64,000 bases of DNA, taken from contig CAMNJE010000115.1 of assembly GCA_946541195.1 (NCBI GenBank), forward strand, positions 2,392-66,391. Reading direction: 5' to 3'. Under the pieces are notes generated by a model, which was not told where the DNA came from, ran no database searches, and saw nothing but the letters and a program-made list of their open reading frames with translations. How positions within the stretch are numbered: the first letter of the stretch is position 1; every line of letters begins with the position of its first letter. The translations under genes were made by a program, and so were the position numbers. This document shows positions 30,203-47,213 of the stretch, piece by piece. The DNA comes from an uncultured Prevotella sp. (GTDB lineage Bacteria > Bacteroidota > Bacteroidia > Bacteroidales > Bacteroidaceae).

Positions 30203-30236
30203 TTTGAGGTTTATTCATTATAATTGTTTACCTTTG
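30203..30236 (+). promoter_or_regulatory. Probable promoter of the polysaccharide operon
   Basis: TTTG 30203-30206, 22-nt spacer (slightly long), TACCTTTG 30229-30236. Confidence 0.6.
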
Positions 30237-30653
30237 CATGCGACTTGATGCCCGACATGTCTGTAAAAGACGGGTAAGGGTGGGGGTCGATTATTTTGGA
30301 GCAGCGTCTATAAACGCTTGTTTTTGGTTGTTTGAACCTGAGAAATTCAAAAAATCGTAATCAAGGACAAAGCAGAAGTGGATTTCTGTCTGTTATTACG
30401 AGGGTTTTCTCAGGACCTAAACAACGAACGGGCAGGTTGGAGATTCACGCTTTTTGTTTTTTCAACGTCTATCGTGGCGGTTTTCAATTTGCGTTGTGCT
30501 GTCTTCCAAACACAGGATTGTATATGCGAATCATCGTTGTCGCTGGGAACCAGTGCAAGGCATGAGGGAGTGTGTATATCATATAGAATTATCGGGTACT
30601 ACCATGAAATATGGCGGTGTCCCCCTTCTTTGTAATTTATCAGAAGAGGAACA

Positions 30654-33128
30654 ATGAAAGAATCAGACATGAATAAAGAATTGGAGAAAGGACCTGTTGG
30701 GAAAGAAGAGGGCACGCTCGTGTTCCGAGAACTCTGCGATTACTATGTAAGTAACTGGAAATGGTTCTTGGCATCAGTGGTTGCTTTCCTGCTTGCGGCT
30801 TGTATCTATCTGTGGTTCACGCCCACGAAGGTCAATGTGACAGGCAAGTTGCGTATTATGGACAAGTCGAAGCAGAGCGGTCAACTGTCGATGGGCATGT
30901 CCATGCTGAACTCCCTCCCTATGGGCCTTGGCAGTAGTCTTGGTGGCGGTCTTGGGGCAGTCCTTGGGGGCGGCATCGAGTCCGAACAAGAGATTCTCCT
31001 GTCTAATAATCTCTCCAAGGAAGTCGTCAGCGAACTGGGACTTTACACCGAGTATCGCCAGAAGAAGTGGGGTAGGAAGAACTTGTTATACCAGAACCAG
31101 CCCGTGAGCGTGATAGTCGCGCCAGAACTGCTGAAGACGCTTGAAGCCAAACTCCCCTTGAAGAATCTGCAGATCAGGCTCCTTATAACCAAAAGTGGAG
31201 ACAGTTATACAGTGGAAACAGTTGTGAAGGAGAACAAGGAGAAGACGGAACTGCCTGAGGAGACCTTCTCGCACCTTCCTGCGACGATTGAAACAGGTCT
31301 TGGTCCTATCGTGCTGAGCGAGAATACGCAACTGACGGAGCAGGACCGTGAGTCATACCAAGACGGTTACACCCTGCAGGTTACCATTATTCCCCCTTCG
31401 GAGAGAGCGGCAGATTTCCTTGAACATTTGACGGCGGAGCCCTCCTTGAGCAAGGCTCCGGATATCATTGGACTGACGTTGGAAGACGAGAGTGTGGTGA
31501 GAGGGGTCGATTTCGTGAACACCCTGGTGGAACTCTACAACAAGTACATCAATGAAGAGAAGAACGAGGAGGCGCTGAAGACAGACGAGTTCGTCAATAA
31601 GCGCCTGGCGAACCTGGATGTCGAACTGGGCCATTCAGATGAGGCTTGGGAGAAATCGAAGAAGAGTTTCCAAGTAACTGAACCTTCCGTCGATGCCCAA
31701 GAGATTATGACCAAAAGGGGCCAGTATGAAGCCCAGTTGGTCAGTTTCGGAACACAGATTCAGTTGCAGGACTACCTAAATGAATATGTCAACGATCCCA
31801 CGAACCTGTTTGAACTTATCCCTGTGAATGTCGGAGTCTATGGAGGTGATGCCCTGCCGATGATCAGTCAGCATAATACACTGATCACCCAGCGTCGCGA
31901 ACTGTTGAAGAGTGTCAGTGAGCAGTCGCCTGTCGTAAAGAAGATCAACCTATCCATTCAGGAACTCCATCCCAATATCCAGACAGCCATGAAGCGCGAC
32001 CGCCAGTCGCTGTTGATTAAGCGTCAGGCTGTGGAGCGTGAATATGATAGGTACAACGGCCGTGTTACGAATACTCCGCAGGCTGAGCGCGTCCTGACGG
32101 AGATCGGTCGTCAGCGTGAGATCAAGCAGGGCGTCTATCTGCTGATGCTCCAGCAGCGCGAGGAGACTGCCATGCAACTGGCCAATATCACGGACAAGGG
32201 AAAACTCATCGATGCCGTCAGGGCCGTCAGATACAGCAATCACCCCAAGAAAAAGGTCGTACTGCTTGGGGCACTCCTTCTGGGTCTTCTCTTCCCCATG
32301 CCATTCCTGTTCATGTCAGCAACAAGATCCAGACAGATATTTAAGAGTGCCTCTGTGATGGTTTTGGCGCTTTTCATGTTTTCTGCCTGTATGAGCACAA
32401 AGAATGTTCCTTATTTCACCAATATGGACGAGATCTCCACAAGTGATTCCAAAGTGCAATATGAAGCAAGGATCATGCCAAAGGATATTCTTCAGATTAA
32501 GGTTTTCTCGACGACTCCAGGAATGGTTGATGCCTTCAATCTGGAAAAGACCCCTGTCTCTTCATCGTCAACGACTGACCATGTCACCCCCAATTCTGTA
32601 TATAACTATATTGTCGATAGTGATGGTGACATTATCTACCCAGTCATTGGAAGCATTCATGTGGGTGGCTTGACGCGAAAAGAGGCAGAGACCCTGATAA
32701 AATCCAAGGTTGCACCTTATATGTCGCCAACAGAGGATTACCTGGTTCATGTCCGTATGATCAACTACAAGTATTCTGTTCTTGGTGAGGTCAGGTCTCC
32801 TGGAACATTTCATACTCAGAATGAGAAGGTCAATATCATCGAGGCTATAGCCCAGGCAGGTGATATGACTCTTTATGGATTGCGAGACAGGGTTTTCCTG
32901 ATTCGTGAGAACAGTGACGGACAGAAAGAATTTCATCGTCTGAACCTAAACGACGCGAACATCGTCAGTTCACCGTATTACTATTTGCAACAGAATGACA
33001 TCATCTATGTAGAGCCCAACAAGGCACAAGCCAGAAGTTCATTCTTCTCGACGACAAGTTCAATCTGGCTATCCATCACGAGTGCTCTGGTCTCATTAAG
33101 TACTTTGATTATTGCCATAACCAAATAG
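30654..33128 (+). CDS. Fused polysaccharide co-polymerase (Wzc-like, no kinase domain) and OPX/Wza export lipoprotein
   Basis: 824 aa single frame: TM1 + coiled-coil periplasmic region + TM2 (res 1-553), then MSATRSRQIFKSASVMVLALFMFSA-C(579), Poly_export/SLBB motifs (YIVDSDGDIIYPVIGSIHVGGLT, VLGEVRSPG, IEAIAQAGD, YYYLQQNDIIYVEPN) and a hydrophobic C-terminal helix. Confidence 0.85.
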   Translation: MKESDMNKELEKGPVGKEEGTLVFRELCDYYVSNWKWFLASVVAFLLAACIYLWFTPTKVNVTGKLRIMDKSKQSGQLSMGMSMLNSLPMGLGSSLGGGLGAVLGGGIESEQEILLSNNLSKEVVSELGLYTEYRQKKWGRKNLLYQNQPVSVIVAPELLKTLEAKLPLKNLQIRLLITKSGDSYTVETVVKENKEKTELPEETFSHLPATIETGLGPIVLSENTQLTEQDRESYQDGYTLQVTIIPPSERAADFLEHLTAEPSLSKAPDIIGLTLEDESVVRGVDFVNTLVELYNKYINEEKNEEALKTDEFVNKRLANLDVELGHSDEAWEKSKKSFQVTEPSVDAQEIMTKRGQYEAQLVSFGTQIQLQDYLNEYVNDPTNLFELIPVNVGVYGGDALPMISQHNTLITQRRELLKSVSEQSPVVKKINLSIQELHPNIQTAMKRDRQSLLIKRQAVEREYDRYNGRVTNTPQAERVLTEIGRQREIKQGVYLLMLQQREETAMQLANITDKGKLIDAVRAVRYSNHPKKKVVLLGALLLGLLFPMPFLFMSATRSRQIFKSASVMVLALFMFSACMSTKNVPYFTNMDEISTSDSKVQYEARIMPKDILQIKVFSTTPGMVDAFNLEKTPVSSSSTTDHVTPNSVYNYIVDSDGDIIYPVIGSIHVGGLTRKEAETLIKSKVAPYMSPTEDYLVHVRMINYKYSVLGEVRSPGTFHTQNEKVNIIEAIAQAGDMTLYGLRDRVFLIRENSDGQKEFHRLNLNDANIVSSPYYYLQQNDIIYVEPNKAQARSSFFSTTSSIWLSITSALVSLSTLIIAITK

Positions 33129-33157: not shown

Positions 33158-34750
33158 ATGAAGAGTAAGTGGTTTTTATTTTTAGTTTTTATATCCATCG
33201 GCCTGGCATCGGGATGTTCTGGTAGCGATGTGGTTGAGGAACCAGTTCCTGCTCCTTCAGAGCCCAAGGCCAATGGCAAGGATACGACTTCTGATAGTGT
33301 CGAAAACATAAGTCCTTCATTGCTGAGTGTTATCTTCAGATGTGAAGACAATGCTTATCAGTTGAGTGAAGATATAGCCTGTGAGATACTTGATGACAGC
33401 GTTGTAGTATGTAGGATTCCCAATGTCGTAGAAAACAAACAGTTGAAGCCGGCGATTAGATTTGTTGGCGAAAAGTTGTTGATAGACGGTGTCGCCTATC
33501 AGGCGGGGGACCAATATGATTTTCGGAAGCCAGTTAAACTCTCAGTCATAGCAGGACACGAAACGAGGACATATACGGTGTATGTCCATTCCTTCACGGG
33601 TCTTCCTGTGATGTGGATAGAGACAGTAGGTCGGCAGGACATCACGTCGAAAGAAGAGTATCTGAAAGCCAGTTTCAGGTTAGAGGAAGGAGTTGTTTCC
33701 AGGGGTGCAGGTGATGTGATATGTGATAGTATCCAGATAAAAGGACGTGGAAACACGACATGGAGCCTGTTTGACAAGAAGCCCTATCGCCTGAAGTTCG
33801 GCAAGAAGGTCTCTCTCTTAGACATGCCAGCAGATAAAGCCTGGGTGTTATTAGCAAATCCTGCCGATAAGTCGATGCTCCGTAATATGATCAGTTTCTA
33901 TTTGGGTCAACTCAGTAATCTGGATTGGACGCCAAGGGCACACTTTGTGGAACTCATGCTGAATGGGAGATACAATGGGACTTATCTTCTGACAGAAAAG
34001 ATCAAGATTTCAGAGCACAGGGTGAATATTGGTGATAACGGCATCCTGATGGAGTTGGATGCGTATGCGCATAATGAGGCAGATTCACGCTATTTCAATA
34101 CGAATCATTTCAAGCATGAGATAAACATCAAGGCTCCGCATGTTGAATATGGGGATGAGATTTTTAACAAGGCTAAAAACTTGATGTTGACTGCTGAAGA
34201 AGTGTTGTTCTCTGACGATTTCACTGACCCTTTGGTGGGATGGAGGAAGTATCTGGATGAAACCTCGTTTATAGACTGGTATCTGGTCAATGAAATCGTT
34301 AAGAATACAGATGTTGTGGATTGGTCTTCCACCTATTTCAATTGTCAGGCTGGAGGGAAACTCAAGATGGGCCCACTCTGGGATTTTGATCTCACATTTG
34401 GGAATTGTGAGGAAAAATTTGAATCACGGATATCAACACCTGAAGGCTTTTCTGCCATGCATAATCCTTGGATTTCTCAACTTTTCAAGGATTCCTCGTT
34501 TGTAAAGAACGTTAAGGCACGGTACGAGTACTTTTATAGTCAGAAAGAGAGAATCTTCATGGAAATCAATGAGAATAGTCAGTATCTAAAATATGCCGTT
34601 GTAGAAAACGATAACCGCTGGCATACCTTATATGCAAGTGCATGGAGAAATCCAATTATCTGGGGCAGTTACGATAATGAGGTGCAGTTCTTGAAGCAAT
34701 GGCTCAATACCCGTATGGAATGGCTCAAACGGGAATATGAAAACATGTAA
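33158..34750 (+). CDS. CotH kinase family lipoprotein
   Basis: 530 aa; lipobox ASGC, IKGRGNTTW, KKPYRLKF, WVLLAN, FVELMLNGRYNGTYLLTEKI, MGPLWDFDLTFGN. Confidence 0.88.
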   Translation: MKSKWFLFLVFISIGLASGCSGSDVVEEPVPAPSEPKANGKDTTSDSVENISPSLLSVIFRCEDNAYQLSEDIACEILDDSVVVCRIPNVVENKQLKPAIRFVGEKLLIDGVAYQAGDQYDFRKPVKLSVIAGHETRTYTVYVHSFTGLPVMWIETVGRQDITSKEEYLKASFRLEEGVVSRGAGDVICDSIQIKGRGNTTWSLFDKKPYRLKFGKKVSLLDMPADKAWVLLANPADKSMLRNMISFYLGQLSNLDWTPRAHFVELMLNGRYNGTYLLTEKIKISEHRVNIGDNGILMELDAYAHNEADSRYFNTNHFKHEINIKAPHVEYGDEIFNKAKNLMLTAEEVLFSDDFTDPLVGWRKYLDETSFIDWYLVNEIVKNTDVVDWSSTYFNCQAGGKLKMGPLWDFDLTFGNCEEKFESRISTPEGFSAMHNPWISQLFKDSSFVKNVKARYEYFYSQKERIFMEINENSQYLKYAVVENDNRWHTLYASAWRNPIIWGSYDNEVQFLKQWLNTRMEWLKREYENM

Positions 34751-34754
34751 CTTA

Positions 34755-35543
34755 ATGAGTGATTATATTAGTTATCTGGATATACCAAGACAATGGGGGC
34801 TGAAAAGTGGTGACGTCGTCATACTCTCTTCCTATCTCACGAGAGTGGTGATGGATACAAAGAGAAATGGCGAACATTTTGATATGAATCTTTTCCTGGA
34901 ATCAGTACTTGACGTGATAGGAGAAGAAGGTACCTTGCTTATCCCTACATTTAATTGGGACTTCTGCCATGGTGAGACATTCGATTACTATAAGACAAAA
35001 AGTCAGACAGGTGTTTTAGGAGATAAGGCGTTGATGCATCCTAAATTCAGGCGGACTCAACATGCCTTATATTCTTTTGCCGTAGCAGGCAAGGATCAGG
35101 CAATGCTTTGTGGCCTGACAAATCAATCGTCGTTTGGTGCCGACTCACCATTTGCATATTTGGAGAGGTGCCATGCAAAACAAGTCATGATTGATGTTCC
35201 GGAAAATCATATATGGGGTTTCACATACGTTCATTTTGTCGAGGAGAAATATAGGGAGTTCATCCCATACAGGTATATGAAGGAGTTCAGAGGCACTTAT
35301 ATAGATGAAAGTTTGCGGGAATCTATTAGGACATACACCATGTTGGTTAGAAACTTGGATATGGATGTCAGAGTAGAATTGGATCCTTTGGCAGAAGCGT
35401 TTACGAGAGAAGGTGTCCTGACATCGTACCGAATAAACAATGAATATTATACCGTTGTTGATTTGTATAGTTCAACAAGAATAGTTGCAGAAGACATCCT
35501 AACTAATAAAAGTAGATTGTTTACACGTTATAATGGACAGTGA
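34755..35543 (+). CDS. AAC(3)/YokD-family N-acyltransferase
   Basis: Start ATG 34755 (or 34737); GTLLIPTFNWDF, SQTGVL, RRTQHALYSFAVAG, SSFGADSPF, TYVHFVEE. Confidence 0.8.
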   Translation: MSDYISYLDIPRQWGLKSGDVVILSSYLTRVVMDTKRNGEHFDMNLFLESVLDVIGEEGTLLIPTFNWDFCHGETFDYYKTKSQTGVLGDKALMHPKFRRTQHALYSFAVAGKDQAMLCGLTNQSSFGADSPFAYLERCHAKQVMIDVPENHIWGFTYVHFVEEKYREFIPYRYMKEFRGTYIDESLRESIRTYTMLVRNLDMDVRVELDPLAEAFTREGVLTSYRINNEYYTVVDLYSSTRIVAEDILTNKSRLFTRYNGQ

Positions 35544-35549
35544 GTAATA

Positions 35550-35846
35550 ATGGATAAGAAAAGAATTAATGAGATAGTCATCAGTACTTTGAAGGACTAT
35601 TGTGAAGCAAACGGGATTAATGTCGAACTGACAAAAGATACCTCTTTGATAGGTAGTGCAAGAATTCTCGACTCAATGGGATTGGTGAACACTATCGTGG
35701 ATATTGAAACGGCCTTTCTTGATGAGGGCGTTGATATTTCTCTGACCTCTGAGGCTGCCATGTCTGGACGCATCAGCCCCTTCCGTTCAGTCGGATCCCT
35801 TTGTAACTTTATCGCTCGTCAACTTGGTATTGACGAAAAGGAATAG
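35550..35846 (+). CDS. Acyl/peptidyl carrier protein
   Basis: 98 aa; ILDSMGLVNTIVDIE Ser motif, PFRSVGSL. Confidence 0.8.
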   Translation: MDKKRINEIVISTLKDYCEANGINVELTKDTSLIGSARILDSMGLVNTIVDIETAFLDEGVDISLTSEAAMSGRISPFRSVGSLCNFIARQLGIDEKE

Positions 35847-35861
35847 ATTAGGCAGACCTTT

Positions 35862-37391
35862 ATGAAGATTAATCTGATTGAGTTATTCGAGGAGTCTGTA
35901 AGCCAGAGCCCTCAGAAGGTTGCAGTGATTGATCAAGGCAGAGAAATCTCTTTCTCTGATCTCCGAAAGCGAGCAATAGCCTTGGCTCATAGAATCGTAA
36001 AGGCTCGTGACATCGTGAACAAGCCAATAGCAGTATTCCTTGATAAATCGATAGAGAGTGTTTATGTTGATTTGGGTATTATTTACTCAGGTAATTTCTA
36101 CATGAATCTCAATGTCAAGTCGCCTGCAGGGCATATCAACAATATACTGAAATTAGTGAATCCAATTATCATTATTTCAACAAGTAAGTATATAATAGAC
36201 ATAGCAAGTGTCATTCCTGTTCAGACAGATGTGATTCTACTTGATGATAAAGAGCAGGAAACCACTTTCGATGAAACTTTCCTGATTAATAGGATATCCA
36301 GAATAATAGATACTGATCCCTCATGCATTATCAATACGTCAGGATCTACTGGTACTCCCAAAGGTGTTGTTCTCAATCACAGAAGTTTTTTTGACTTTAC
36401 GGAGTGGGCTATTGAAACTTTTAATTTTGGAAACGATTTGGTGATAGGCTCTCTTTCCCCTATCGTTTTTGATATTTATAGTTTTGAATTGTGTTTGTTG
36501 ATGGCCAAGACGGCCACGTTGGTTGTATTACCAGCCCATAAGGCGATGTTTCCTGCTGAAATACTAAACCAACTTGAACAATATAAAGTGAATTTTCTGT
36601 TTTGGGTGCCTTCCATCATGGTAAATATAGCCAACAAGAACCTTCTGGCCACATTTAAATTGGAATCAATGAAAACTATATGGTTTGCAGGGGAAGTGTT
36701 CCCAACCAAACAGTTCAACTACTGGTATCATCATCTACCCCATGTCACCTTTGCCAATCTATATGGTCCGATAGAAATAACGCTCGACTGTACATATTAT
36801 ATTATTGACAAGGATATTCCTGATGAGGAGCCGTTACCAATTGGCCGTCCATGTCGAAATACAGATATCCTCATTTTGGATAGCGAGAATAGGGCAGTGA
36901 CAAAACCAAATATAGAGGGAGAATTGTGCGTTCGTGGAACTTCACTTGCCATGGGTTATTATAATGACGCTGAAAAGACGAAACTTGCTTTTGTCCAGAA
37001 TCCAACAAACCAATCTTATCCAGAGTTAATATATCGGACAGGCGATGTGGTTTGCTATAATGATGATGGCTTGATAATGTTCAAGGGACGCAGGGATAAT
37101 ATAATAAAACACATGGGTTACCGTACAGATTTGGGCGAGATAGAGCATGTCATAATTAATACATTGAAACTTGTAAAAAATGGTTGTGTAGTATATAATC
37201 AAAAGAACAAGGATATTACATTGTTCTACGAGGCAGAGCATGAAATATCTGCTTCTGATTTCCGCAAAGCGATTGGACAACTATTACCCAAATATATGAT
37301 ACCTTCAGTTTATCATCATTTGGATTCTCTTCAACGTAATACAAATGGCAAAATCGACAGGTTGTTCTACAAAAATTCTGTGAATGGATAA
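35862..37391 (+). CDS. Stand-alone amino acid adenylation domain protein (DltA-like)
   Basis: 509 aa; NTSGSTGTPKGV, FDIY, FAGEVF, NLYGPIE, YRTGD, GRRDNIIKHMGYR, NGKIDR. Confidence 0.9.
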   Translation: MKINLIELFEESVSQSPQKVAVIDQGREISFSDLRKRAIALAHRIVKARDIVNKPIAVFLDKSIESVYVDLGIIYSGNFYMNLNVKSPAGHINNILKLVNPIIIISTSKYIIDIASVIPVQTDVILLDDKEQETTFDETFLINRISRIIDTDPSCIINTSGSTGTPKGVVLNHRSFFDFTEWAIETFNFGNDLVIGSLSPIVFDIYSFELCLLMAKTATLVVLPAHKAMFPAEILNQLEQYKVNFLFWVPSIMVNIANKNLLATFKLESMKTIWFAGEVFPTKQFNYWYHHLPHVTFANLYGPIEITLDCTYYIIDKDIPDEEPLPIGRPCRNTDILILDSENRAVTKPNIEGELCVRGTSLAMGYYNDAEKTKLAFVQNPTNQSYPELIYRTGDVVCYNDDGLIMFKGRRDNIIKHMGYRTDLGEIEHVIINTLKLVKNGCVVYNQKNKDITLFYEAEHEISASDFRKAIGQLLPKYMIPSVYHHLDSLQRNTNGKIDRLFYKNSVNG

Positions 37392-38082
37392 AATTATAAT
37401 CATAACGGGTACACGCAAGGGCATTGGAAGATATCTTGCAGAGCAGTATCTTGAAGAGGGAGATGTTGTATATGGATGCAGTCGCAGGAACTGTGATCTT
37501 GAACATCCCAACTACCATCATGTACGATTAGATGTTTCAGATGAAAACGAGGTTGTCAGTTTTGTGCGTCATATATATAAGAATCATAGGCGTATTGATG
37601 TACTAATTAATAATGCAGGCTGTGCATCAATGAACCATTTTTTGTTAACTCCATACGATTCGGCAAAGAAGGTGTTCAACACAAATTTTTTCGGAACTTT
37701 CTTGATGTGTCGCGAGGTGGCCAAGTTTATGGTTAAAGCCAGAAGTGGTCGCATAGTAAATTACTCGACAGTGGCAGTGGCTTTGAATTTACATGGTGAA
37801 TTGGTATATTCTGCATCTAAGGCTGCAATAGAGCAGTTGACTCGTGTATTGGCAGATGAAATCGGAGAAAGTGGTGTAACAGTAAATGCTATTGGGCCTA
37901 CCCCTATAGATACAGACTTGATTAAGAATGTACCAGAAGATAAACTTCAAGATTTGCTCTCTCATCAGTGCATCAAACGGCTCGGAAAGTTTGAGGATGT
38001 GAAGAATGTTATTGATTTCTTCTTAAAGCCAGAAAGTAGTTTTATAACTGCACAAACCATTTATTTAGGAGGAGTCGTCTAA
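37384..38082 (+). CDS. SDR family oxidoreductase (FabG-like)
   Basis: 232 aa; TGTRKGIG, INNAG, YSASK. Confidence 0.9.
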   Translation: MDKIIIITGTRKGIGRYLAEQYLEEGDVVYGCSRRNCDLEHPNYHHVRLDVSDENEVVSFVRHIYKNHRRIDVLINNAGCASMNHFLLTPYDSAKKVFNTNFFGTFLMCREVAKFMVKARSGRIVNYSTVAVALNLHGELVYSASKAAIEQLTRVLADEIGESGVTVNAIGPTPIDTDLIKNVPEDKLQDLLSHQCIKRLGKFEDVKNVIDFFLKPESSFITAQTIYLGGVV

Positions 38083-38083
38083 C

Positions 38084-39421
38084 ATGAACTGGTTTATCGA
38101 AAAAATCAGGGGTGGTATGGACAGGAAGGCAGTCATCTTCTCTGGAAAAGAATATTCTTATGAAATGCTCTATCAAAGTGTCTGTAAGGATTATGAACGG
38201 GTGAAGAAGATGTTTCAGCCAGGTAATGTGATTGCTATTGTATCAGACTATAGTTTTGCGTCCATTTCCCTCTTTTTTGCCCTTTATGAGAATCACAATA
38301 TAATTGTACCTATCACCACTAAAGTAAAGTCGGAAATCGATGATCGCATTAATGTGGCAGGTTGTGACTATGTGGTATCAATCCATGGAGAAGAATGGTC
38401 AATTTCCAAACGTGAGAATACTGATGCTTCCCATCCTTTGGTTGTTCAACTTCAGAAAATATTTCATTCTGGGTTGATATTGTTTAGTAGTGGTACAACA
38501 GGTAAGCCTAAGGCCATGATTCATAATCTGGATAATCTGATAGTTAATTACAGAGAAAAGCGTGGTAAGCGACTGGTTTTTCTCATCTTTCTGATGTTTG
38601 ATCATATCGGAGGCTTGAATACGCTGCTTAATTGCCTCTCAATGAATGTTGAGATGGTGTTTCCAGAAAGCAGAGAGCCAGATCATGTAGCCTATTTAAT
38701 AGAGAAATATAAGGTGAATGTGTTGCCTGCATCTCCTACATTCCTGAACCTGCTGCTGATAGGAGAATGTCAGAATCGTTATGATTTAAATTCGCTTCGC
38801 ATGATAACATACGGAACAGAATCTATGCCAGAGAGCCTGTTGTTAAGATTGAAGGTTGTTTTTCCAAGAGTTAAGTTTCTGCAAACTTTTGGTACTAGTG
38901 AAACAGGTATTTCTGCAACATCAAGTTATTCTTCTACAAGCACTTTCTTAAAAATAGATGATCCAAATACCGAGTATAAAGTTGTCAATGGTGAGTTGTG
39001 GATACATAGTAAAACGCAAATCATGGGTTATTTGAATTCAAGTATGGAACGTTTTACTGATGACGGGTGGTTTAGGACAGGTGATATAGTAGAAGAGAAA
39101 GATGGCTATATTAAGATTATTGGACGTAATTCTGAGATCATCAATGTAGGAGGGGAGAAAGTACTTCCTACAGAAGTGGAATCTGTTATTTTTCAGATGC
39201 CTCATGTCAGTGATTGCATTGTATATGGAGAGAAAAATCCAATTGTGGGACAAATGGTTGTTGCAAAGATTCTATATGACGAAGATATTAAACTATCTGA
39301 ATTGAAGAAATTGGTTACTGCATTTTGTAAGGATAAATTGACTCGCTACAAGATTCCAGCAAAAGTTGTGAAAATGAGTGAGGCTGAATATACTGAGCGG
39401 TTTAAGAAGAAACGAATTTGA
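38084..39421 (+). CDS. Adenylate-forming acyl-CoA/acyl-ACP ligase
   Basis: 445 aa; FSSGTTGKPK, TFGTSETG, WFRTGDIVE, GRNSEIINVGGEKV, YKIP. Confidence 0.88.
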   Translation: MNWFIEKIRGGMDRKAVIFSGKEYSYEMLYQSVCKDYERVKKMFQPGNVIAIVSDYSFASISLFFALYENHNIIVPITTKVKSEIDDRINVAGCDYVVSIHGEEWSISKRENTDASHPLVVQLQKIFHSGLILFSSGTTGKPKAMIHNLDNLIVNYREKRGKRLVFLIFLMFDHIGGLNTLLNCLSMNVEMVFPESREPDHVAYLIEKYKVNVLPASPTFLNLLLIGECQNRYDLNSLRMITYGTESMPESLLLRLKVVFPRVKFLQTFGTSETGISATSSYSSTSTFLKIDDPNTEYKVVNGELWIHSKTQIMGYLNSSMERFTDDGWFRTGDIVEEKDGYIKIIGRNSEIINVGGEKVLPTEVESVIFQMPHVSDCIVYGEKNPIVGQMVVAKILYDEDIKLSELKKLVTAFCKDKLTRYKIPAKVVKMSEAEYTERFKKKRI

Positions 39422-39423
39422 GA

Positions 39424-40188
39424 ATGTTATTTCATAATTTCACGGCTGAAGAACTGTCTGTTGCCCAAAGAACTCTGAAGAGGAATGGGAAGATATTATT
39501 CAATAATCTACCTGTATTGCACGATGTCTCCTTATATCAGATTTCAAAGACAGATGATTCTTTATTGATTAGAAAAAGGGAACATAATTTTTACCGATTA
39601 TTTGTATGTTCCAATAATGATGCAGATATAAAGAAGTCATTAAATTCCTTATATGACGATATTTATCTTCTCAATATACCAACCAAGGAAGATATAATGG
39701 AATCCAAAAGTCTTCTGTATGATTGTGGATTTGAGTTATGTGGTGTTTACAAACGATTTTACAATAAATCTATTGTCCATCGGGATGAAGTTTGTGGGGC
39801 TTTTGCGCATCCGGATGATTTTGACGACATCAAGGCAATGCTTTATGAGACCTTTTCTACATATACAGATTATATACCAGAGGATGAAGAATTGTTGTCG
39901 ATGATAAGTAATCGCCAGGTTTTGGTTAATAGGTATGAGAATGGTCGTGTTGGAGGGTTTGTTATATTTACCATAGAAGCAGCCAGGGGATATATCAACG
40001 TATGGTTAGACAAAACAGGGAATGGCATACCTCTTATGTACAAGACATATAATGTTTTTGAGGAGAATGGTGTCAAATATGTTAATTTTTGGATTAACTC
40101 CCAGAATCGTAATGTCATTGTGCTACATAGGATGATGGGAGCAAAGTCAGACGGTTTGATAGATTATACATTTTTAAAGAATAAATGA
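39424..40188 (+). CDS. GNAT-like acyltransferase
   Basis: ATG 39424 (track starts at TTG 39418); C-terminal half resembles the GNAT fold (VGGFVIFTIE...FWINSQNRNVIVLHRMMG); no diagnostic motif. Confidence 0.5.
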   Translation: MLFHNFTAEELSVAQRTLKRNGKILFNNLPVLHDVSLYQISKTDDSLLIRKREHNFYRLFVCSNNDADIKKSLNSLYDDIYLLNIPTKEDIMESKSLLYDCGFELCGVYKRFYNKSIVHRDEVCGAFAHPDDFDDIKAMLYETFSTYTDYIPEDEELLSMISNRQVLVNRYENGRVGGFVIFTIEAARGYINVWLDKTGNGIPLMYKTYNVFEENGVKYVNFWINSQNRNVIVLHRMMGAKSDGLIDYTFLKNK

Positions 40189-40433
40189 AGAGTGATGTAA
40201 TTATGAGAGAAAAAGTTATTGAAATTCTTGATGGCCTGAGGCCTGAGTTTGATTTTTCAGAGGATGTGAATTTTATTGAAGAAGGAATGCTTGATTCACT
40301 AGATTTGGTGAACTTAGTTGATAAACTTGAACAAGAGTATTCGATTGAAATTGATGGCCTCGATATCGTTACAGAGAATTTCACGTCTCTGGAAAGCATC
40401 TTGAATTTATTGAAGAAGTGTGGCGCAAAATAA
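40185..40433 (+). CDS. Acyl carrier protein (DltC-like)
   Basis: 82 aa (alternative start 40203); FIEEGMLDSLDLVNLV, DIVTENFTSLESI. Confidence 0.88.
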   Translation: MKSDVIMREKVIEILDGLRPEFDFSEDVNFIEEGMLDSLDLVNLVDKLEQEYSIEIDGLDIVTENFTSLESILNLLKKCGAK

Positions 40434-41439
40434 TTTAGATGATTCTTGTATGACGCATCCTCCGAAGGTTTCAGTAATCGTGCCAATCTATAATGTCCAG
40501 GATTATCTTCGGCAGTGTTTAGACAGCGTTATAGGACAGACTTTCTCAGACTATGAACTGATTTTAGTCGATGATGGAAGTACTGATGGAAGTGGCTTAA
40601 TATGTGATGAATATGATAACAAAGACAAAAGAGTCAAGGTTATCCATCAGGAAAATGCTGGTTTGCCAGCGGCAAGGAAAGTAGGGATAGAGCATTCACA
40701 GGGTGAATACGTTCTGTATGTGGATGCTGACGACTGGGTGGACGACAACCATTTAGATATTTTGGTGCGAAAGGCAGAACAAGAAGAAGCAGATGTCGTG
40801 ATTTGTGGATTCTATTTTGAGTTTCCTCGAAAGCAAGTGAAGTCCGTCAATAGTCCTGCCTCATTAACTGGTAAAGGTGTCATCATTGAAAGTTTCAAAA
40901 ACTCAATTCATGCAGGCGTTGTCTTTAAGTTGATAAGGAGGTCATTATTTACTGATTACCATATATCATTCCCTAGGTACAACTATTTTGAAGACATGTA
41001 TTTGTCAACAGGACTCTTGTTGCATACGGAAAAGATTGCTTCAACAGGCTGTTCGACTTATCACTATAGGTACAATCCTTTATCGCTGACAAATATACAT
41101 AATCCTTCTATAAGGTTTGAGAAGTACTATGAATTTATCCATAATATGGAAGACCTTTCGGAAAAATACGCTCTGTTGGATGATAAGGAATTGGAAGATG
41201 CATTCTACGACTTAGTCAATAGGAATAAGATACTTTTGTTGGAACTGCCATTTAGTTCGGGGAGAGATATTCGTCGTGCTTACGAATGTTTTCCTCATTC
41301 TTGGAAATGGTATAAGGTCGGATTCAGTTTAGTGCGCATGCTCTACTATTTTGCCTTGCGATATCATTATCTAAGAGGTGCTCAGATTTACAAACATGTC
41401 AGGGATATCATCAAAAGAATACTCAAAGGGACTCGATAA
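40420..41439 (+). CDS. Glycosyltransferase family 2
   Basis: VSVIVPIYNV, LVDDGSTDGS, GLPAARKVG, YVDADD; start GTG 40420 or ATG 40450. Confidence 0.92.
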   Translation: MAQNNLDDSCMTHPPKVSVIVPIYNVQDYLRQCLDSVIGQTFSDYELILVDDGSTDGSGLICDEYDNKDKRVKVIHQENAGLPAARKVGIEHSQGEYVLYVDADDWVDDNHLDILVRKAEQEEADVVICGFYFEFPRKQVKSVNSPASLTGKGVIIESFKNSIHAGVVFKLIRRSLFTDYHISFPRYNYFEDMYLSTGLLLHTEKIASTGCSTYHYRYNPLSLTNIHNPSIRFEKYYEFIHNMEDLSEKYALLDDKELEDAFYDLVNRNKILLLELPFSSGRDIRRAYECFPHSWKWYKVGFSLVRMLYYFALRYHYLRGAQIYKHVRDIIKRILKGTR

Positions 41440-41444
41440 AGAAA

Positions 41445-42944
41445 ATGAAGGATCTAATCATATCCAGTAGTGATTACAACCATATTACGCGTATGGTTGA
41501 TGAGGCGGAAATATCTGCCAGATTTGGTAATCAAGTGTATTTCTTGTTATGCAACCGCAATTTCGGCTATTGCGCCTGTAATATGCGTGGCAGTCGTTTT
41601 AAATGTCACCGTTGCGAGCGCTATGTCAAAGGCCTGCTGAAGAAATGCTCGCCAGGAATTAAGGTCATCGAAATGGATCAGCAGACGAAAGCATTGCTTA
41701 GTGAAGAGGTAAACAAGTTGGAATTTGATTATCAAACGATTGATGACATCAAATCAATAGAATACAGGGGGGCTATGGTAGGTATGGGATGCCTGTCAAC
41801 ATACGTCACAAACTATCGGAATAATAATCCTTTAATGGATGATGACTTCAGGTCGTATTTTGACAAGTTTTTGAGAACTGCTTGTTATTATGCCGAATTC
41901 CAATACAGGATGATTAACGAAATAAAGCCTGACAGGATACAACTATTTAATGGTCGGTGTCTGGAGAATAGGGCCGCGTCCGATTTTGCGATACAGCATC
42001 ATATACTCCTAAGGACTTGTGAATTCTGGAAGGTCTTTCCACATTATTTCGTAAAGCACACCTTCTATAACTCATTGCCACATAATATAGAGGACAACAA
42101 AAAACGTATCAATAATTTATGGGCAGATGAATATGTGCCATTTGAGGAGAAAGAAAGATTGGGGAGAAGATTCTTTGAAAGTAAGTATAATCACACCTAT
42201 AGTGGTGACAAAGATTATACTGCTCATCAGGTTGCAGAAAAAATGCCCGATAACTGGGATCGTACTAAAAAGAACTACGTTATATTCAACAGTTCTGAAG
42301 ATGAGTTTTCTGCCGTAGGTGAGGATTATGATCAGGGCAAAGTATTCCATTCCCAGTATGAGGGTATCCTACACATCGCAAATCTGTTAAAGGATCGGTC
42401 AGATATTAATGTATATCTTCGTATTCACCCCAATTTGAGCAAGATAAAATATAAGTATCATACGAAACTGCTTGATCTGGACCACCAATATAAGAATTTC
42501 TTTGTCATTCGTGGAGACAGTGATATTTCTTCGTATGCTATCATGCGTGAGGCTTTTCGCGTTATCACCTTTGGATCGACAACAGGCGTTGAAGCATCCT
42601 ATATGGGTAAGCCTGTCATTGCCTTATGTCGCAATTGGTTTTCTTATGTTGATGTCTGTTATGACCCTACAACGATAGAAGAAGCAGAACAATTGATTTT
42701 AGCAGAGGACCTAACTCCTAAGCCACAGATTAATACGATTAAATTTGGGTATTACTGTATGAATCTCTCACTTCCGAGTTTCTCTTTCTTTGACTATAAC
42801 ATCAATGATTTTACTATCTTCGGAAGAAAGTTGCGCCGATATGCCCTGGCAAAATATCTGGGTTCTACTACGCTGTACGCTTTAGTGGGTTGGGTAGGGG
42901 AGTTCTTATGTAAGAGAGATACGATTCCCGTCAAGGAAAGATAA
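41445..42944 (+). CDS. GT-B fold capsule biosynthesis protein (KpsS/KpsC-like), donor unknown
   Basis: 499 aa; FNSSEDE, YLRIHPN, VITFGSTTGVEASYMGKPVI; Cys cluster near the N-terminus. Confidence 0.55.
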   Translation: MKDLIISSSDYNHITRMVDEAEISARFGNQVYFLLCNRNFGYCACNMRGSRFKCHRCERYVKGLLKKCSPGIKVIEMDQQTKALLSEEVNKLEFDYQTIDDIKSIEYRGAMVGMGCLSTYVTNYRNNNPLMDDDFRSYFDKFLRTACYYAEFQYRMINEIKPDRIQLFNGRCLENRAASDFAIQHHILLRTCEFWKVFPHYFVKHTFYNSLPHNIEDNKKRINNLWADEYVPFEEKERLGRRFFESKYNHTYSGDKDYTAHQVAEKMPDNWDRTKKNYVIFNSSEDEFSAVGEDYDQGKVFHSQYEGILHIANLLKDRSDINVYLRIHPNLSKIKYKYHTKLLDLDHQYKNFFVIRGDSDISSYAIMREAFRVITFGSTTGVEASYMGKPVIALCRNWFSYVDVCYDPTTIEEAEQLILAEDLTPKPQINTIKFGYYCMNLSLPSFSFFDYNINDFTIFGRKLRRYALAKYLGSTTLYALVGWVGEFLCKRDTIPVKER

Positions 42945-42949
42945 AGAGT

Positions 42950-44062
42950 ATGTTGATCTATCTCATCTCCTTTCTCTATTGTATTTTCTTCCACTATGTG
43001 GCATATCGGGTGGATAACAAAACGGCAAAATATGTCCTTGTCTTCCTTCCATTGGTATGGCTTGCTGTTCTGGCGGGCATGAGAGATTATGGCGTAGGGA
43101 CGGATACGATGATGTACTCTAAAGCCTATTTTGATGATGCCCGCCATGCTGATGGTATAGGAGATTTGCTGAACAACAATAATGTCACGATCTCCAATAA
43201 AGGCTACCTGTTTCTGAACTACCTTGGGGCCATGATGATGTCGCATATCTTTATTGAATGGTTTCTCACGGAACTATTGATTCTTGTGTTTACCTATCTG
43301 GCTGTGTTGAAACTATCAAGACAATACACCATCAATCTTGCCGTCTTCTCTATGCTATATCTCTTTGCCTTCTATAATCCCTCGTTAAACCTGATGCGAC
43401 AGACGTGTGCCATATCGATTTGTCTCCTGGCATTTGCTTATCTCCTCGAGAAAAGGACGATTGTGGCTGTTGCCCTGATTCTGTTATCTGTCACATTCCA
43501 CACTTCTGCTGCTATATTCCTCCTGGCATTTGCCTATTACTATCTGAGGGATACCAAGCATAAGACGCTCATTCTTTCCATATTGGTTGTCGGAATGGCT
43601 GTAGGCATCCTGCTTTATTACCAGTTATTAAACCTACTTGGGCAGTTTGGACTGTTTTCCAGGGTATATATGGAGAGATACGGTCTTAATTCCCAATATG
43701 CTGGGGAAAGGGTGCCATACGCTTTTGTGGTCGTGTCCATCACTATTTATATTGGAATTTATCTGAGCCATAGGAAAAAGATTCTGAAAGATAGCGAGCA
43801 TTTCTTCATCCTGTTGATCCATACGACTTTCTCCATTTTGATGATGTTGAATGTGCTGGTAAACACGCTCATCAGGATATCGTATTATTTCTATGCTTTG
43901 GATATCGCCTTGATGGCTGTGTTGTTGACTTCAAGGAAAATGTATTTTGGCTATAAAATCGTCTTGCCTACAGTTATCTTCTTGATGTGGCTGTATAATT
44001 TCATGTACCTGAATGGTAATGCGACGTATCCATACAAATCTCAAGTCTTGGGAATATATTAG
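42950..44062 (+). CDS. Wzy/EpsG-family polysaccharide polymerase
   Basis: 370 aa, about 10 TMs; RDYGVGTDT, NLMRQTCA, FHTSA, RISYYF. Confidence 0.85.
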   Translation: MLIYLISFLYCIFFHYVAYRVDNKTAKYVLVFLPLVWLAVLAGMRDYGVGTDTMMYSKAYFDDARHADGIGDLLNNNNVTISNKGYLFLNYLGAMMMSHIFIEWFLTELLILVFTYLAVLKLSRQYTINLAVFSMLYLFAFYNPSLNLMRQTCAISICLLAFAYLLEKRTIVAVALILLSVTFHTSAAIFLLAFAYYYLRDTKHKTLILSILVVGMAVGILLYYQLLNLLGQFGLFSRVYMERYGLNSQYAGERVPYAFVVVSITIYIGIYLSHRKKILKDSEHFFILLIHTTFSILMMLNVLVNTLIRISYYFYALDIALMAVLLTSRKMYFGYKIVLPTVIFLMWLYNFMYLNGNATYPYKSQVLGIY

Positions 44063-44066
44063 TAAA

Positions 44067-45128
44067 ATGGAGAAGTTGCTGACTATTATTATACCAACAT
44101 ACAATATGGAGAAATACCTCCATCGGTGCCTTGACTCACTTCTCGTAAGTAAGGTATATATGGATATGATGGAGGTCTTGATAATTAATGATGGATCGAA
44201 GGATTCTTCTTCTGCTATTGGTCATACATACGAATCCAACTATCCTCGTACCTTCCGCGTGATAGATAAGCAAAATGGTAACTATGGCTCATGCGTGAAT
44301 CGTGGACTGATGGAGGCTTCTGGGAAATTCGTCAAAATTCTTGATGCTGACGACTTCTACCAGACAGCGCATTTAGAACAATTTGTATGTATGCTAAAAG
44401 ATGTGGAAGCAGACCTCGTATTGACGGATATGGTCTTCGTCTATTCTAAAGAGCGGAAGATATACCAGTCATTTGACTTCCCTGCGGATATCGTGCACTC
44501 AGCGACACTGATGGCACATAGCGATTTTATGAATAAAATGGAAATGCATCATGTCACCTACAAGAAAGACGTTCTTGATAGAATCAACTATCAACAGACT
44601 GAGGGCATTTCCTATACAGATCAGGAGTGGATATTCTATCCTATGATGGCAGTGAACTCTATCTCGTACATCCCCATAGACATTTATCAATATATGCTGG
44701 ACAGAGGAGGACAGACGATGGATATGGAGGTTGAAGCGAGATGTGTGGACCATAAGATCACTATCGCCAAACGGATGATAGAATATCTGAAGGAAGGGCG
44801 ATTTGACCATCCTTCTAAAGAAGTCTATGCCAGATGCCGTCTTAGTAGGTTCCTTCGGCTAATATATAAGTTGGTACTTCTATATCAGACGGATAACCAA
44901 TACCGTACGCATCTCAAATTATTGGAAAACATGGATATTATGGTAAAGATCAACTTACCATATTTGTATGATGAATCCAACAGTTACGTCATATCATCAG
45001 AGATTCCGATGAAGTTTGTTAAATACTGGAGGGTGAGACGCTGCAGATATCCCCTGTTTGTGTTAAAGTTACACAGACAGGTTAAGGGATTGGATGTCTT
45101 ACTTAGGAAAATGCATCTGAGAGGATAG
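44067..45128 (+). CDS. Glycosyltransferase family 2
   Basis: ATG 44067; LTIIIPTYNMEKYL, INDGSKD, NYGSCVNRG, LDADD. Confidence 0.92.
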   Translation: MEKLLTIIIPTYNMEKYLHRCLDSLLVSKVYMDMMEVLIINDGSKDSSSAIGHTYESNYPRTFRVIDKQNGNYGSCVNRGLMEASGKFVKILDADDFYQTAHLEQFVCMLKDVEADLVLTDMVFVYSKERKIYQSFDFPADIVHSATLMAHSDFMNKMEMHHVTYKKDVLDRINYQQTEGISYTDQEWIFYPMMAVNSISYIPIDIYQYMLDRGGQTMDMEVEARCVDHKITIAKRMIEYLKEGRFDHPSKEVYARCRLSRFLRLIYKLVLLYQTDNQYRTHLKLLENMDIMVKINLPYLYDESNSYVISSEIPMKFVKYWRVRRCRYPLFVLKLHRQVKGLDVLLRKMHLRG

Positions 45129-45131
45129 GTG

Positions 45132-46097
45132 ATGGTGGAGAAGAATGCACTTATAACCGTTATTGTGCCATGCTATCAGGTAGAGCAATATCTGCCAGCA
45201 TGTATTGACAGTATTCTAAGACAGACTTATCGCCAACTGGAGATACTATTGGTAGATGATGGCAGTCATGATAGAAGTGGGAATATATGTGACGTCTATG
45301 CTAAGAAAGATAGCAGGATCAGGGTGATCCATAAGGAAAATGGCGGTCTTAGTGATGCTCGTAATGTTGCTATTGATCAGGCTAAGGGTGATTGGATTAC
45401 GTTTATTGATAGTGACGACTTTGTAGCAGACTCATATATAGAAGAGTTGTACCAACTGGCTGTTGACAATGGATGTGATTGCGCCGTGTGCCTTTTTTCC
45501 ATGTTTAAGGAAGGTGGAGTGCCCCGACAGTATAATTCCTCTCGACATGTTGAGATTTACAATTCATATAAAGCCGCCAGACAGATGTTTTATCAGGAAA
45601 AGTTTGACAATAACGCTCATTCCAAGTTGTACCATAGGAAACTTTTTGAGAGTGGTATCAGATACCCGAAAGGACTGGTTTTTGAAGATCTTGCCACCAC
45701 TTATAGGCTTCTGCTCCAGAGCAACAGAGTGGTATTTACATCGCAGCACCTCTATTACTATCTGTTGAGAGAGGGGAGTATTGAGGGCAGTTATAGTGTG
45801 AAGAAGATTGATGATGCAATGAAAGTAATGGAGATGATGGATAAAGATATGACTAAGTATCCAATGTTGGAGAAGTCATATCGTTGTAGGAAGTTTAGTT
45901 TTATGATGCACCTATTAATGGGAATCCCAAAGGATGATATGCATCATCAGGAATTAGTCAAGAGGATAAAGAGAATGAGGGCAGATGTCTTGCGGGATAG
46001 GCATGCCAGGAAGAAAGCCCGTATGGCAGCAATATTGTCTTATCTTGGTATAGATATTGTGGAGTTATGTTTCTCATTGGTGAATAAAAGGAAATAG
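45132..46097 (+). CDS. Glycosyltransferase family 2
   Basis: VIVPCYQV, VDDGSHD, ENGGLSDARN, FIDSDD, FEDLAT. Confidence 0.92.
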   Translation: MVEKNALITVIVPCYQVEQYLPACIDSILRQTYRQLEILLVDDGSHDRSGNICDVYAKKDSRIRVIHKENGGLSDARNVAIDQAKGDWITFIDSDDFVADSYIEELYQLAVDNGCDCAVCLFSMFKEGGVPRQYNSSRHVEIYNSYKAARQMFYQEKFDNNAHSKLYHRKLFESGIRYPKGLVFEDLATTYRLLLQSNRVVFTSQHLYYYLLREGSIEGSYSVKKIDDAMKVMEMMDKDMTKYPMLEKSYRCRKFSFMMHLLMGIPKDDMHHQELVKRIKRMRADVLRDRHARKKARMAAILSYLGIDIVELCFSLVNKRK

Positions 46098-46112
46098 ATT
46101 CAATCCGAGGAT

Positions 46113-47213
46113 ATGAAGGTGTTGCATATAGGACAGTTGGTTGGTGGAATTGAGGTATATGTGAGGAATACCATTCTGTATTCATCTTCCGACTTTGAGT
46201 TTGTCATCGTGGAGGGACAAGGGGATAAGCATTTGCCTATCATAAGGAATGGCGTGGAAATAAAGACTTATCGCATTCCCTTGTATCGTGACCTGAACCC
46301 TCTTAAGGATGGTAAGGCCTTGATTCAGACCATTCGGATCATTAGGGAGGAAAAGCCTGGTATCATTCATTGCCATAGCGCAAAGGGGGGATTTATCGGG
46401 CGGTGGGCAGGATTCCTGACAGGTGTCAGAGTACTCTATACGCCTCATGCATTTTCATTCTTAAGTACTGACTCGATAATCAAGAAGCGTATTTATGTTT
46501 GGTTGGAGAGGTTGGCAAGGCTGAACTCTTGTTTATTGGCCTGTTCTGAGTCTGAACAGGGGTTGGGAAGGGCGATGGTCCATTACAGGCCGTCGAGGGC
46601 ATTGGTTTGGCATAATGCCGTGCCTGATGTGGTGGCAGGAAAGTTGGGTTGTATCGACCCTGGGCCCTTTATCTGCTGCATTGGGCGACCATCTTATCAG
46701 AAAAACACTTTCTTCTTGTTGGATGTCGTGAAAAAGGTACATGCAAGATACCCAGAATTGAAATTCTATCTATTAGGTGTGGGCTACTATGCACCAGATG
46801 CCAATGAACTAAGTCTTCAAATAGAGCGAGCGGAGTTGAACGGAACATTTGTGATGGTTCCCTGGCTTAGCCATGAAGAAACCCTCAGGTACGTTAAAGC
46901 CTCATTGATGTATCTGACTGTATCAAGATATGAAGGTCTTCCTCTTGCTGTTCTTGAAGCGATGGCATCAGGCAAGGCCATCATCGCGTCTGATGTGACA
47001 GGGAACAGAGATTGTGTGAGAGACGGGGAGAATGGCTACCTCCTGCCTATGGAAGTGAAGTCGTTCACTGATGCTATCTGCCTCCTGATAGAAGATAAAA
47101 ACAAACGGGAGACTATGGAGAGGAACTCTAGACAATTGTTTGAAAAAGAATTTCTGATCGACCATCAGATAGGATTATTGGAAACCATCTATAAGGATCA
47201 TGCGAAGGAATAA
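46113..47213 (+). CDS. Glycosyltransferase family 4
   Basis: 366 aa; IHCHSAKGG, YTPHA, SRYEGLPLAVLEAMASGKAIIASDV. Confidence 0.92.
   Translation: MKVLHIGQLVGGIEVYVRNTILYSSSDFEFVIVEGQGDKHLPIIRNGVEIKTYRIPLYRDLNPLKDGKALIQTIRIIREEKPGIIHCHSAKGGFIGRWAGFLTGVRVLYTPHAFSFLSTDSIIKKRIYVWLERLARLNSCLLACSESEQGLGRAMVHYRPSRALVWHNAVPDVVAGKLGCIDPGPFICCIGRPSYQKNTFFLLDVVKKVHARYPELKFYLLGVGYYAPDANELSLQIERAELNGTFVMVPWLSHEETLRYVKASLMYLTVSRYEGLPLAVLEAMASGKAIIASDVTGNRDCVRDGENGYLLPMEVKSFTDAICLLIEDKNKRETMERNSRQLFEKEFLIDHQIGLLETIYKDHAKE

Follow-up and report, generated by a model that had tools for sequence, protein, structure and literature searches.

The window considered here, a stretch of 64,000 nucleotides (nt) of DNA, comes from a rumen or ruminant-gut Prevotella (contig CAMNJE010000115.1 of assembly GCA_946541195.1) and carries on its + strand an open reading frame (ORF) of 824 codons, 30654..33128, which heads a Wzy-type polysaccharide locus. 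The ORF, of 824 amino acids (aa), was found exactly as first described in an earlier note made from the letters of the window alone. By its architecture and its family, it almost certainly encodes a polysaccharide co-polymerase (PCP) of the Wzc type that is free of a kinase domain and is joined in frame to a short outer-membrane polysaccharide exporter (OPX) of the Wza type.

In the N-terminal two thirds of the protein Pfam gave weak matches to Wzz (residues 26-128) and GNVR (residues 483-553), the latter below the gathering score, while NCBIfam aligned residues 450-560 to residues 341-451 of Wzc, up to and through the second transmembrane helix (TM2), with an E-value of 1e-12. A sequence search of the Protein Data Bank (PDB) pointed to the same two families, Wzc and Wza. 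Likewise, an AlphaFold2 model (68 homologues; mean predicted local distance difference test score, pLDDT, of 73) matched Wzc (E 1e-18) and Wza (E 1e-10) in Foldseek searches, and its periplasmic domain matched the Wzc structures 9r68 and 7nhr with E-values of 1e-17 to 1e-18. This domain, of about 475 aa, is modelled as a beta-rich base with long helical arms, and includes long helices at residues 281-339, 344-380 and 426-510. In the region of GNVR and TM2, P531 is invariant and G544 nearly so in alignment A2, while the invariance of P548 is confined to alignment A1, with its 11 sequences. The topology proposed for the protein is based on hydropathy and the AlphaFold2 model, the hydropathy profile having four hydrophobic segments (residues 37-57, 535-553, 566-578 and 802-823). 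Between the second and the third of these a scan of hydropathy and charge placed a loop (residues 554-565) of 12 residues with three K/R and no D/E, which opens with Met554, encoded by ATG 32313. The features of a lipoprotein signal follow one another here, a positively charged n-region RSRQIFK, an h-region of 13 residues and the lipobox F-S-A-C, the cysteine being Cys579 (codon 32388-32390). This lipoprotein-type signal is internal to the ORF, where it occupies residues 554-578, and does not form the N-terminal end of the translated precursor.

In the exporter half, Poly_export (PF02563) scored 55.8 bits, where the cut-off is 28, and SLBB (PF22461) 30.7 bits, where it is 27, with sequence matches of the SLBB domain to WzaB (9n9a) and Wza (2j58). 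The C-terminal helix, predicted to comprise 34 hydrophobic residues, gave no match to Pfam Wza_C, and we regard it as a candidate Wza_C-like outer-membrane-spanning helix. Class 1 of the OPX proteins is defined by Poly_export, SLBB(1-14) and Wza_C, the last being recognized by HHpred homology to residues 326-359 of 2J58 (Saidi et al. 2022, PMC9603273); Poly_export and at least one SLBB are both present in the exporter half. Like E. coli Wza, a Class 1 OPX lipoprotein (2J58), this half displays a lipobox cysteine, Poly_export, SLBB and a hydrophobic C-terminal helix of about 34 residues, and its fold matches that of Wza with E-values of 1e-9 to 1e-10. Unlike E. coli Wza, it holds a single SLBB ring, would be about 245 aa long when mature (359 aa in E. 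coli), goes unmatched by Wza_C, and has its signal peptide inside a longer chain, whereas that of Wza opens a gene product of its own. The features are listed in Table 1; the domain reading, the topology and the coordinates of the earlier note, those of ATG 32313 and of the Cys codon at 32388 included, were correct in every detail checked with Pfam, NCBIfam, hydropathy and AlphaFold2.

Table 1. Features of the fused gene and its surroundings (positions in the window; TM, transmembrane helix)
Feature	Residues	Position	Strand	Basis or remark
Whole ORF, 824 aa: PCP without kinase and OPX in frame	1-824	30654..33128	+	Pfam, NCBIfam, Foldseek
Cytoplasmic N-terminal stretch	1-36	30654..30761	+	Before TM1; poorly conserved; low pLDDT at 1-22
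TM1	37-57	30762..30824	+	Hydropathy peak 2.24; predicted helix 35-55
Wzc/Wzz-type periplasmic domain	58-530	30825..32243	+	Pfam Wzz, GNVR; Foldseek to Wzc
Basic stretch and TM2 (PKKKVVLLGALLLGLLFPMPFLF)	531-553	32244..32312	+	Hydropathy 2.47; aligns with Wzc TM2
Cytoplasmic loop (MSATRSRQIFKS)	554-565	32313..32348	+	Starts with ATG 32313; site of the P-loop domain in relatives
Signal-peptide-like h-region, ending in lipobox F-S-A	566-578	32349..32387	+	Hydropathy; family comparison
Lipobox Cys579, predicted +1 of the mature lipoprotein	579	32388..32390	+	Near-invariant in alignment A2
Poly_export (PES, Wza D1)	600-690	32451..32723	+	Pfam PF02563, E 5e-15
Single SLBB domain (Wza D2-like)	706-786	32769..33011	+	Pfam PF22461 (SLBB_2), PF10531
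Hydrophobic C-terminal helix	790-823	33021..33122	+	Predicted helix; hydropathy 2.11; 90% identity to P0002
Rest of the polysaccharide locus, co-directional		33158..48594	+	Pfam on locus genes
Bacteroidetes -7 motif TAnnTTTG		30229..30236	+	Consensus match only; sole match in 29700-33200

Only 12 residues separate TM2 from the signal h-region. In the fused protein no P-loop or kinase family was matched by Pfam, and neither Walker motifs nor a Tyr cluster were found. A hidden Markov model (HMM) made from the kinase domain of relatives, sensitive enough to detect the Wzc kinases of Mucilaginibacter, had no match in the six frames of the 64-kb window, and Pfam revealed no kinase among the genes of the locus; the claim that the gene lacks Walker motifs and a Tyr cluster, and that no other kinase is present, holds for the whole window. 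Likewise, the window contains no second co-polymerase or exporter, the HMMs of both halves matching the ORF 30654..33128 only. The fused protein displays two traits of the PCP-2a proteins, two transmembrane helices around a large helix-rich periplasmic domain (hydropathy, AlphaFold2 and Foldseek) and a conserved Pro/Gly-rich GNVR region that leads into TM2, and misses the third, a C-terminal tyrosine kinase of the bacterial type (BY-kinase; Walker A, A' and B) with a Tyr-rich tail. Accordingly, it is a kinase-free derivative of the PCP-2a lineage and not a PCP-2a member. As in E. coli Wzc (PCP-2a; 7NHR, 9R62), the two helices flank a periplasmic domain with long helical arms, residues 447-560 align to residues 338-451 of Wzc, the fold matches at 1e-18, and the protein is the first-line partner of a Wza-type exporter. 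In contrast to E. coli Wzc, it lacks the cytoplasmic kinase, the Walker motifs and the Tyr tail, its periplasmic domain is larger (about 475 residues), and its C-terminus runs into a signal peptide and an exporter.

The junction between the two halves is real. Public sequencing runs listed for the region number 21, of which 17 contain the sequence, and the contigs of four independent runs (a metatranscriptome from the gut and three gut metagenomes, one each of bovine, goat and sheep origin, produced by different studies) were aligned to 31700-33200. Across this interval the contigs show substitutions only, with neither indel nor joint, and one metatranscriptome contig runs across the junction. 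Since four independent runs cover it gap-free, the junction is not an assembly artefact, and the assembly error that the earlier note had considered is refuted. Within populations 12 of the 16 variants are synonymous, and no frameshift or stop was seen in the four samples. A protein 99% identical to that of the window (P0001) is encoded on a 65-kb JGI contig among the same neighbour genes.

The fusion is no one-off, since single-ORF Wzc-Wza proteins with an internal lipobox are widespread in Prevotella. A protein search returned more than 100 clusters at 90% identity, mostly with a BY-kinase-like domain, of about 1,000-1,030 aa and from gut and rumen assemblies, several being labelled Prevotella by NCBI. 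Domain scans and alignment gave for the family the order TM1, periplasmic domain, TM2, a cytoplasmic P-loop domain (about 185 aa), a stretch rich in K and often also in Tyr, the h-region with the lipobox Cys, Poly_export, SLBB and the C-terminal helix. The P-loop domain of these relatives is BY-kinase-like and bears the motifs SExxGDGKT (Walker A), DxDxR (A') and DTP (B). In 107 kinase-bearing fused proteins the order and the lipobox are as in the window gene; the cysteine stands in the lipobox context [LFIM]-x-[ASG]-C in 108/108 fused proteins (107/108 by the strict pattern), and the h-region measures 13-21 residues, with a mean of 14, in all 108. The window protein is 45-63% identical over both halves to fused proteins of about 1,010 aa, and a neighbour-joining tree places it within the family. 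It resembles proteins such as P0006, P0024 and P0047 in order, internal lipobox and exporter, and differs from them in lacking the P-loop domain of about 185 aa and the stretch KKKYxYYYK that most of them keep. The fused relatives also head polysaccharide loci, and those of about 1,010 aa are named 'polysaccharide biosynthesis/export family protein' by NCBI, while IMG gives them a double COG name.

Among the best 150 matches from 1.8 billion cluster representatives no fused co-polymerase/exporter was found outside the Prevotella clusters, a search of plasmids matched only distant, separate Bacteroides genes, and no report of a PCP-OPX or Wzc-Wza fusion was found in the literature. The Prevotella family of single-ORF Wzc-Wza fusions with an internal lipobox is apparently undescribed.

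In the kinase-bearing fused relatives (P0004-P0111; e.g. L004, about 8251-8326) the 12 residues before the h-region are rich in K and Y (KKKYxYYYK), and three to four Tyr occur in this stretch in 65 of the 108 fused proteins. Most unfused Wzc proteins of the lineage end in '...ILNN' without a Tyr tail, the exceptions being L011 and L075 ('...KKKYKLYY') and L077. The K/Y-rich stretch may be a BY-kinase Tyr tail that doubles as signal n-region, or the n-region of an old Wza. Similarly, the conserved Met in 'NAIDM(T/S)KKK' of the kinase-bearing relatives may be a retained Wza start, with which the spacing in unfused loci with an in-frame stop fits, or part of a native Wzc tail, to which L011 and L075 point. 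That stretch is absent from the window gene, and the question has no bearing on it.

The frequency of fusion was assessed by DNA scans without bias to fused forms, in which about three fused loci stood against 18 unfused wzc-then-wza loci in this Prevotella lineage. In 10 of these 18 (L003, L007, L010, L012, L069, L070, L073, L074, L082 and L083) the two ORFs share the same frame and are separated by a single stop, two to six codons upstream of the Wza ATG, and therefore one substitution is enough to fuse them. Outside the lineage (Mucilaginibacter, Chitinophagaceae, Fibrella, Bacteroides and Phocaeicola) wza and wzc are unfused and wza comes first, which bears out, for other Bacteroidota loci, what the earlier note had given as the usual arrangement. 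In a scan of species-representative genomes, in which the window's species did not turn up, all Prevotella loci found were likewise unfused, and the wza-then-wzc order was found elsewhere. A distant Prevotella-like group (L076, L078 and L079; 46-48% identity) also displays the classical wza-then-wzc order, and therefore the gene order was inverted within the wider lineage.

The block that encodes the P-loop domain (columns about 577-765 of alignment A1) is gapped in the window gene, P0002 and P0107. The kinase-less fused members are the window gene with P0001, P0002 (= L002, L064; 72% identical, 803 aa) and P0107. The last was considered as a truncated variant and rejected as such, being the 3' portion of a gene that a scaffold gap interrupts; without the N-terminal part of the co-polymerase domain, it was placed with the others by alignment and not by the tree. 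In the neighbour-joining tree of the co-polymerase domain the window gene/P0001, P0002, P0093 and P0106 form one clade, in which P0093 and P0106 end right after TM2 and have lost the exporter half. Kinase-less co-polymerases that end after TM2, with no exporter gene behind, are P0106 (L001, 6001-7710), P0093, L067 and P0122; in L001 the next gene starts 3 nt after P0106. The nearest relatives in the tree include P0003, which is fused and kinase-bearing and whose locus shares the GT2, EpsG and 499-aa genes; also among them are L067, kinase-less and unfused, and L066/L068, in which the kinase is present and no exporter lies downstream.

When the window gene is compared with L002, its co-polymerase half has a ratio of nonsynonymous to synonymous differences per site (pN/pS) of 0.24 and its exporter half one of 0.16; both halves are, as judged from these comparisons, under purifying selection. 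Synonymous sites are saturated in this pair (pS 0.67-0.77), from which we infer that the deletion of the kinase domain is old; the recent deletion proposed as one alternative in the earlier note does not fit a kinase-less form common to lineages so far diverged, with both halves under purifying selection. Since the fusion is widespread and mostly accompanied by a kinase-like domain, fusion and kinase loss are separate events. Sequence comparison therefore shows that genes in the order wzc, wza were fused by loss of the stop, giving rise to a large family with a P-loop domain, that a segment of about 185 residues, from TM2 to the signal h-region, was next deleted in one subclade, to which the window gene belongs, and that the exporter was subsequently lost in some lines.

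To explain how the two halves would operate, we favour a natural polyprotein cleaved at its lipobox, and give the full mechanism, cleavage by Lgt and signal peptidase II included, a probability of about 55%. According to this mechanism the whole ORF would be translated from ATG 30654, TM1 and TM2 would insert as in Wzc, and the third, signal-like hydrophobic segment would return the chain to the periplasm. Cys579 would be lipidated by Lgt and the chain cut before it by signal peptidase II, yielding two products in a strict 1:1 ratio, a kinase-free co-polymerase with three helices (about 63 kDa) and a lipoprotein exporter (about 27 kDa), the latter to be sorted to the outer membrane. The two would next form a complex like that of E. 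coli Wza and Wzc, an 8:8 assembly in which the tall helical arms of Wzc carry the Wza D1 ring on top, within a 360 Å channel (PMC12881504), without a phosphorylation cycle, as do the co-polymerases of the Wzz type. Cleavage is favoured because the lipobox is kept in 108/108 fused proteins and because the h-region has the length of a signal peptide and not that of a membrane helix. That an inner-to-outer-membrane polyprotein is in fact cut at an internal lipobox, delivering the two halves of a trans-envelope machine in a fixed 1:1 ratio, stands in our opinion at about even odds. The proposal of cleavage, already made in the earlier note, is thus the best explanation, with indirect support from start context and lipobox conservation, the cut itself being deduced from sequence.

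In the earlier note an internal start at 32313 was offered as an alternative, in which the exporter is translated from this ATG with a normal N-terminal lipoprotein signal (MSATRSRQIFKSASVMVLALFMFSA-C) and the missing stop is incidental. The succession of Met554, R, R, K, a hydrophobic segment and a lipobox does read as a complete lipoprotein signal peptide, and in unfused relatives the start of Wza, MKK(Y), is found a few codons beyond the stop of wzc. Start contexts were scored with a position matrix, with 57 called starts of this and related loci and 459 internal ATGs of the locus as comparison, and the conserved GAT-ATG of kinase-bearing fused relatives scores 0 to 1.9, inside the range of true starts. 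ATG 32313, however, scores -9.6, lower than any of the called starts and than 98% of the internal ATGs; the 25 nt upstream contain two A (mean of 10 and minimum of 4 for the called starts), and A is found at none of positions -3, -6, -12 and -13, where it is a positive initiation determinant measured in Bacteroidetes (PMC6847099). Moreover, the loop of P0002/L064 and P0107 has TTG codons only and no ATG, the TTG of P0002 scoring -13, worse than ATG 32313, and yet their exporter halves are conserved and under purifying selection, the frame having been kept open across a divergence saturated at synonymous sites. Separate initiation is consequently unlikely, and in the window gene the exporter half would most likely be translated as the tail of the co-polymerase. 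In the kinase-bearing fused proteins the exporter might be made both ways, and the deletion of the kinase domain appears to have removed this ancestral internal-start option from the kinase-less clade and to have made single-chain synthesis obligatory there. A search for TAnnTTTG in 29700-33200 revealed no promoter motif near the junction, its sole match being a possible promoter of the locus as a whole; a sigma-70 scan gave nothing above chance, and Rfam found no RNA family in the window.

The chance that the chain stays uncut is just as low. In that case the third segment would be a true membrane helix, and each co-polymerase subunit would be covalently tethered to an exporter subunit reaching the outer membrane. 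Such a tether is allowed by the topology, the 8:8 stoichiometry of Wza and Wzc fits a 1:1 chain, and over 100 clusters retain the single ORF. Nevertheless, the h-region of only 13-14 residues ends in the lipobox that all fused proteins conserve and that is common also to the unfused Wza lipoproteins examined, whereas an uncleaved anchor would not need a lipobox. With about 20-28 residues from Cys579 to Poly_export, an anchor in the inner membrane also looks sterically strained, judging from the E. coli geometry.

Far less probable is a decaying remnant, a gene heading for loss after the kinase deletion inactivated the export pair. This would be in line with the relatives that lack the exporter half (L001, P0093) or a downstream exporter (L066-L068) and with a locus in which no flippase was seen; against it stand the pN/pS of 0.16-0.24 in both halves across saturated synonymous divergence, the preponderance of synonymous population variants in samples free of frameshifts and stops, and the metatranscriptome contig that covers the gene. 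An artefact of assembly or sequencing, in favour of which nothing was found, is practically negligible, given an identical, gap-free junction in runs from different hosts and studies and the same architecture at 72% identity in other assemblies. The probability left over by these five explanations belongs to something else.

Several points weigh against the cleaved polyprotein. Cleavage, lipidation and localisation are derived from topology and conservation, and in the literature no documented action of Lgt or signal peptidase II on a lipobox after two membrane helices was found. The start-context argument is statistical, and weak internal initiation may occur. The kinase-less clade consists of three lineages only, in which the lipobox could be kept by descent alone. 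In P0106/L001 and P0093 the exporter half is missing and the co-polymerase half is still under purifying selection (pN/pS of 0.23 between the L001 co-polymerase and the window gene), and therefore the exporter half is dispensable in some backgrounds. Finally, no Wzx flippase was found in the locus, which leaves the assignment of the pathway incomplete.

Upstream of the fused gene lie a ppiD-like gene, a strong terminator-like hairpin and some 840 non-coding nt, in which the sole TAnnTTTG match is located. The hairpin (29836-29865, +), just after the ppiD-like gene, has 13 pairs, eight of them G-C, followed by a T-run, and between it and the fused gene some 790 nt are devoid of a long ORF. Downstream, the locus encodes a CotH-family lipoprotein, an acetyltransferase-like protein, a small ORF resembling an acyl carrier protein (ACP), two AMP-binding enzymes, a short-chain dehydrogenase, four glycosyltransferases, a Capsule_synth-like protein, an EpsG-type polymerase (42950-44062, about nine helices) and a Bac_transf initiating transferase (47200-48594). 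A Wzx-like multi-helix flippase was not found in 33158-48594. The CotH-family protein (33158-34750, +; PF08757), of an atypical kinase fold, has its own lipoprotein-type signal (MKSKWFLFLVFISIGLASGC), and its gene directly follows the fused gene; the same position was seen in all kinase-less relatives that were examined (L001, 7713-9308; L002, 2764-4110; L146, 830-2407 and 5615-7207), in L146 on both sides of the gene. The cassette at 34737-39421 (+), composed of an aminoglycoside-N-acetyltransferase-like protein, the ACP-like ORF (about 35550-35846, with an LDS motif), the two AMP-binding enzymes and the short-chain dehydrogenase, suggests acyl or aminoacyl decoration of the polymer; it is absent from the kinase-bearing sister locus L145. 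The GC content is 0.36-0.43 in 34000-48000, compared with about 0.50 in the flanks and about 0.46 in the fused gene, and such low values are typical of an exchangeable polysaccharide locus.

Among known systems, the co-polymerases of the Wzz/PCP-1 type resemble the window protein in having no attached tyrosine kinase. GumC, which acts with GumB in xanthan export, is another kinase-free co-polymerase. Unlike the protein described here, Wzz, GumC and GumB are separate, unfused polypeptides, and Wzz has no exporter partner. Since the helical arms alone let Wzz oligomerise, which has no kinase domain (PMC12881504), a kinase-free co-polymerase poses no conceptual problem. Export independent of a kinase, as the earlier note proposed, is thus expected in this clade; the principle itself is not novel, co-polymerases that lack a kinase, Wzz among them, being established. 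What appears to be new is the Prevotella fusion family with its internal lipobox, of which the window gene is the kinase-less branch.

A parallel for the processing is found in FbcH of Bradyrhizobium (cytochrome b-c1), a membrane polyprotein cut at an internal signal peptide by signal peptidase I. In both cases one ORF encodes two membrane-associated partners in a 1:1 ratio, with an internal signal sequence after a membrane domain; in contrast to FbcH, the putative site in the Prevotella protein is a lipobox, for Lgt and signal peptidase II, and one product would have to move to the other membrane. If the cleaved polyprotein is correct, it would be the first described case in which internal lipoprotein processing delivers both halves of a trans-envelope machine at 1:1, and the known substrates of Lgt and LspA would come to include proteins with an internal lipobox downstream of membrane helices.

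Capsule export has its textbook pair in Wza and Wzc, whose 8:8 complex was solved only recently. A natural single-chain version offers a ready test of whether fixed 1:1 synthesis and co-insertion aid assembly, and nature has set up an experiment on the contribution of the kinase cycle in the sister forms, some of which have the P-loop domain while others lack it. In annotation, proteins of this kind (about 800-1,000 aa) deserve the name fused co-polymerase/exporter and not just 'export family protein'. The capsule loci of Prevotella, which dominate the rumen and many human guts, have barely been studied.

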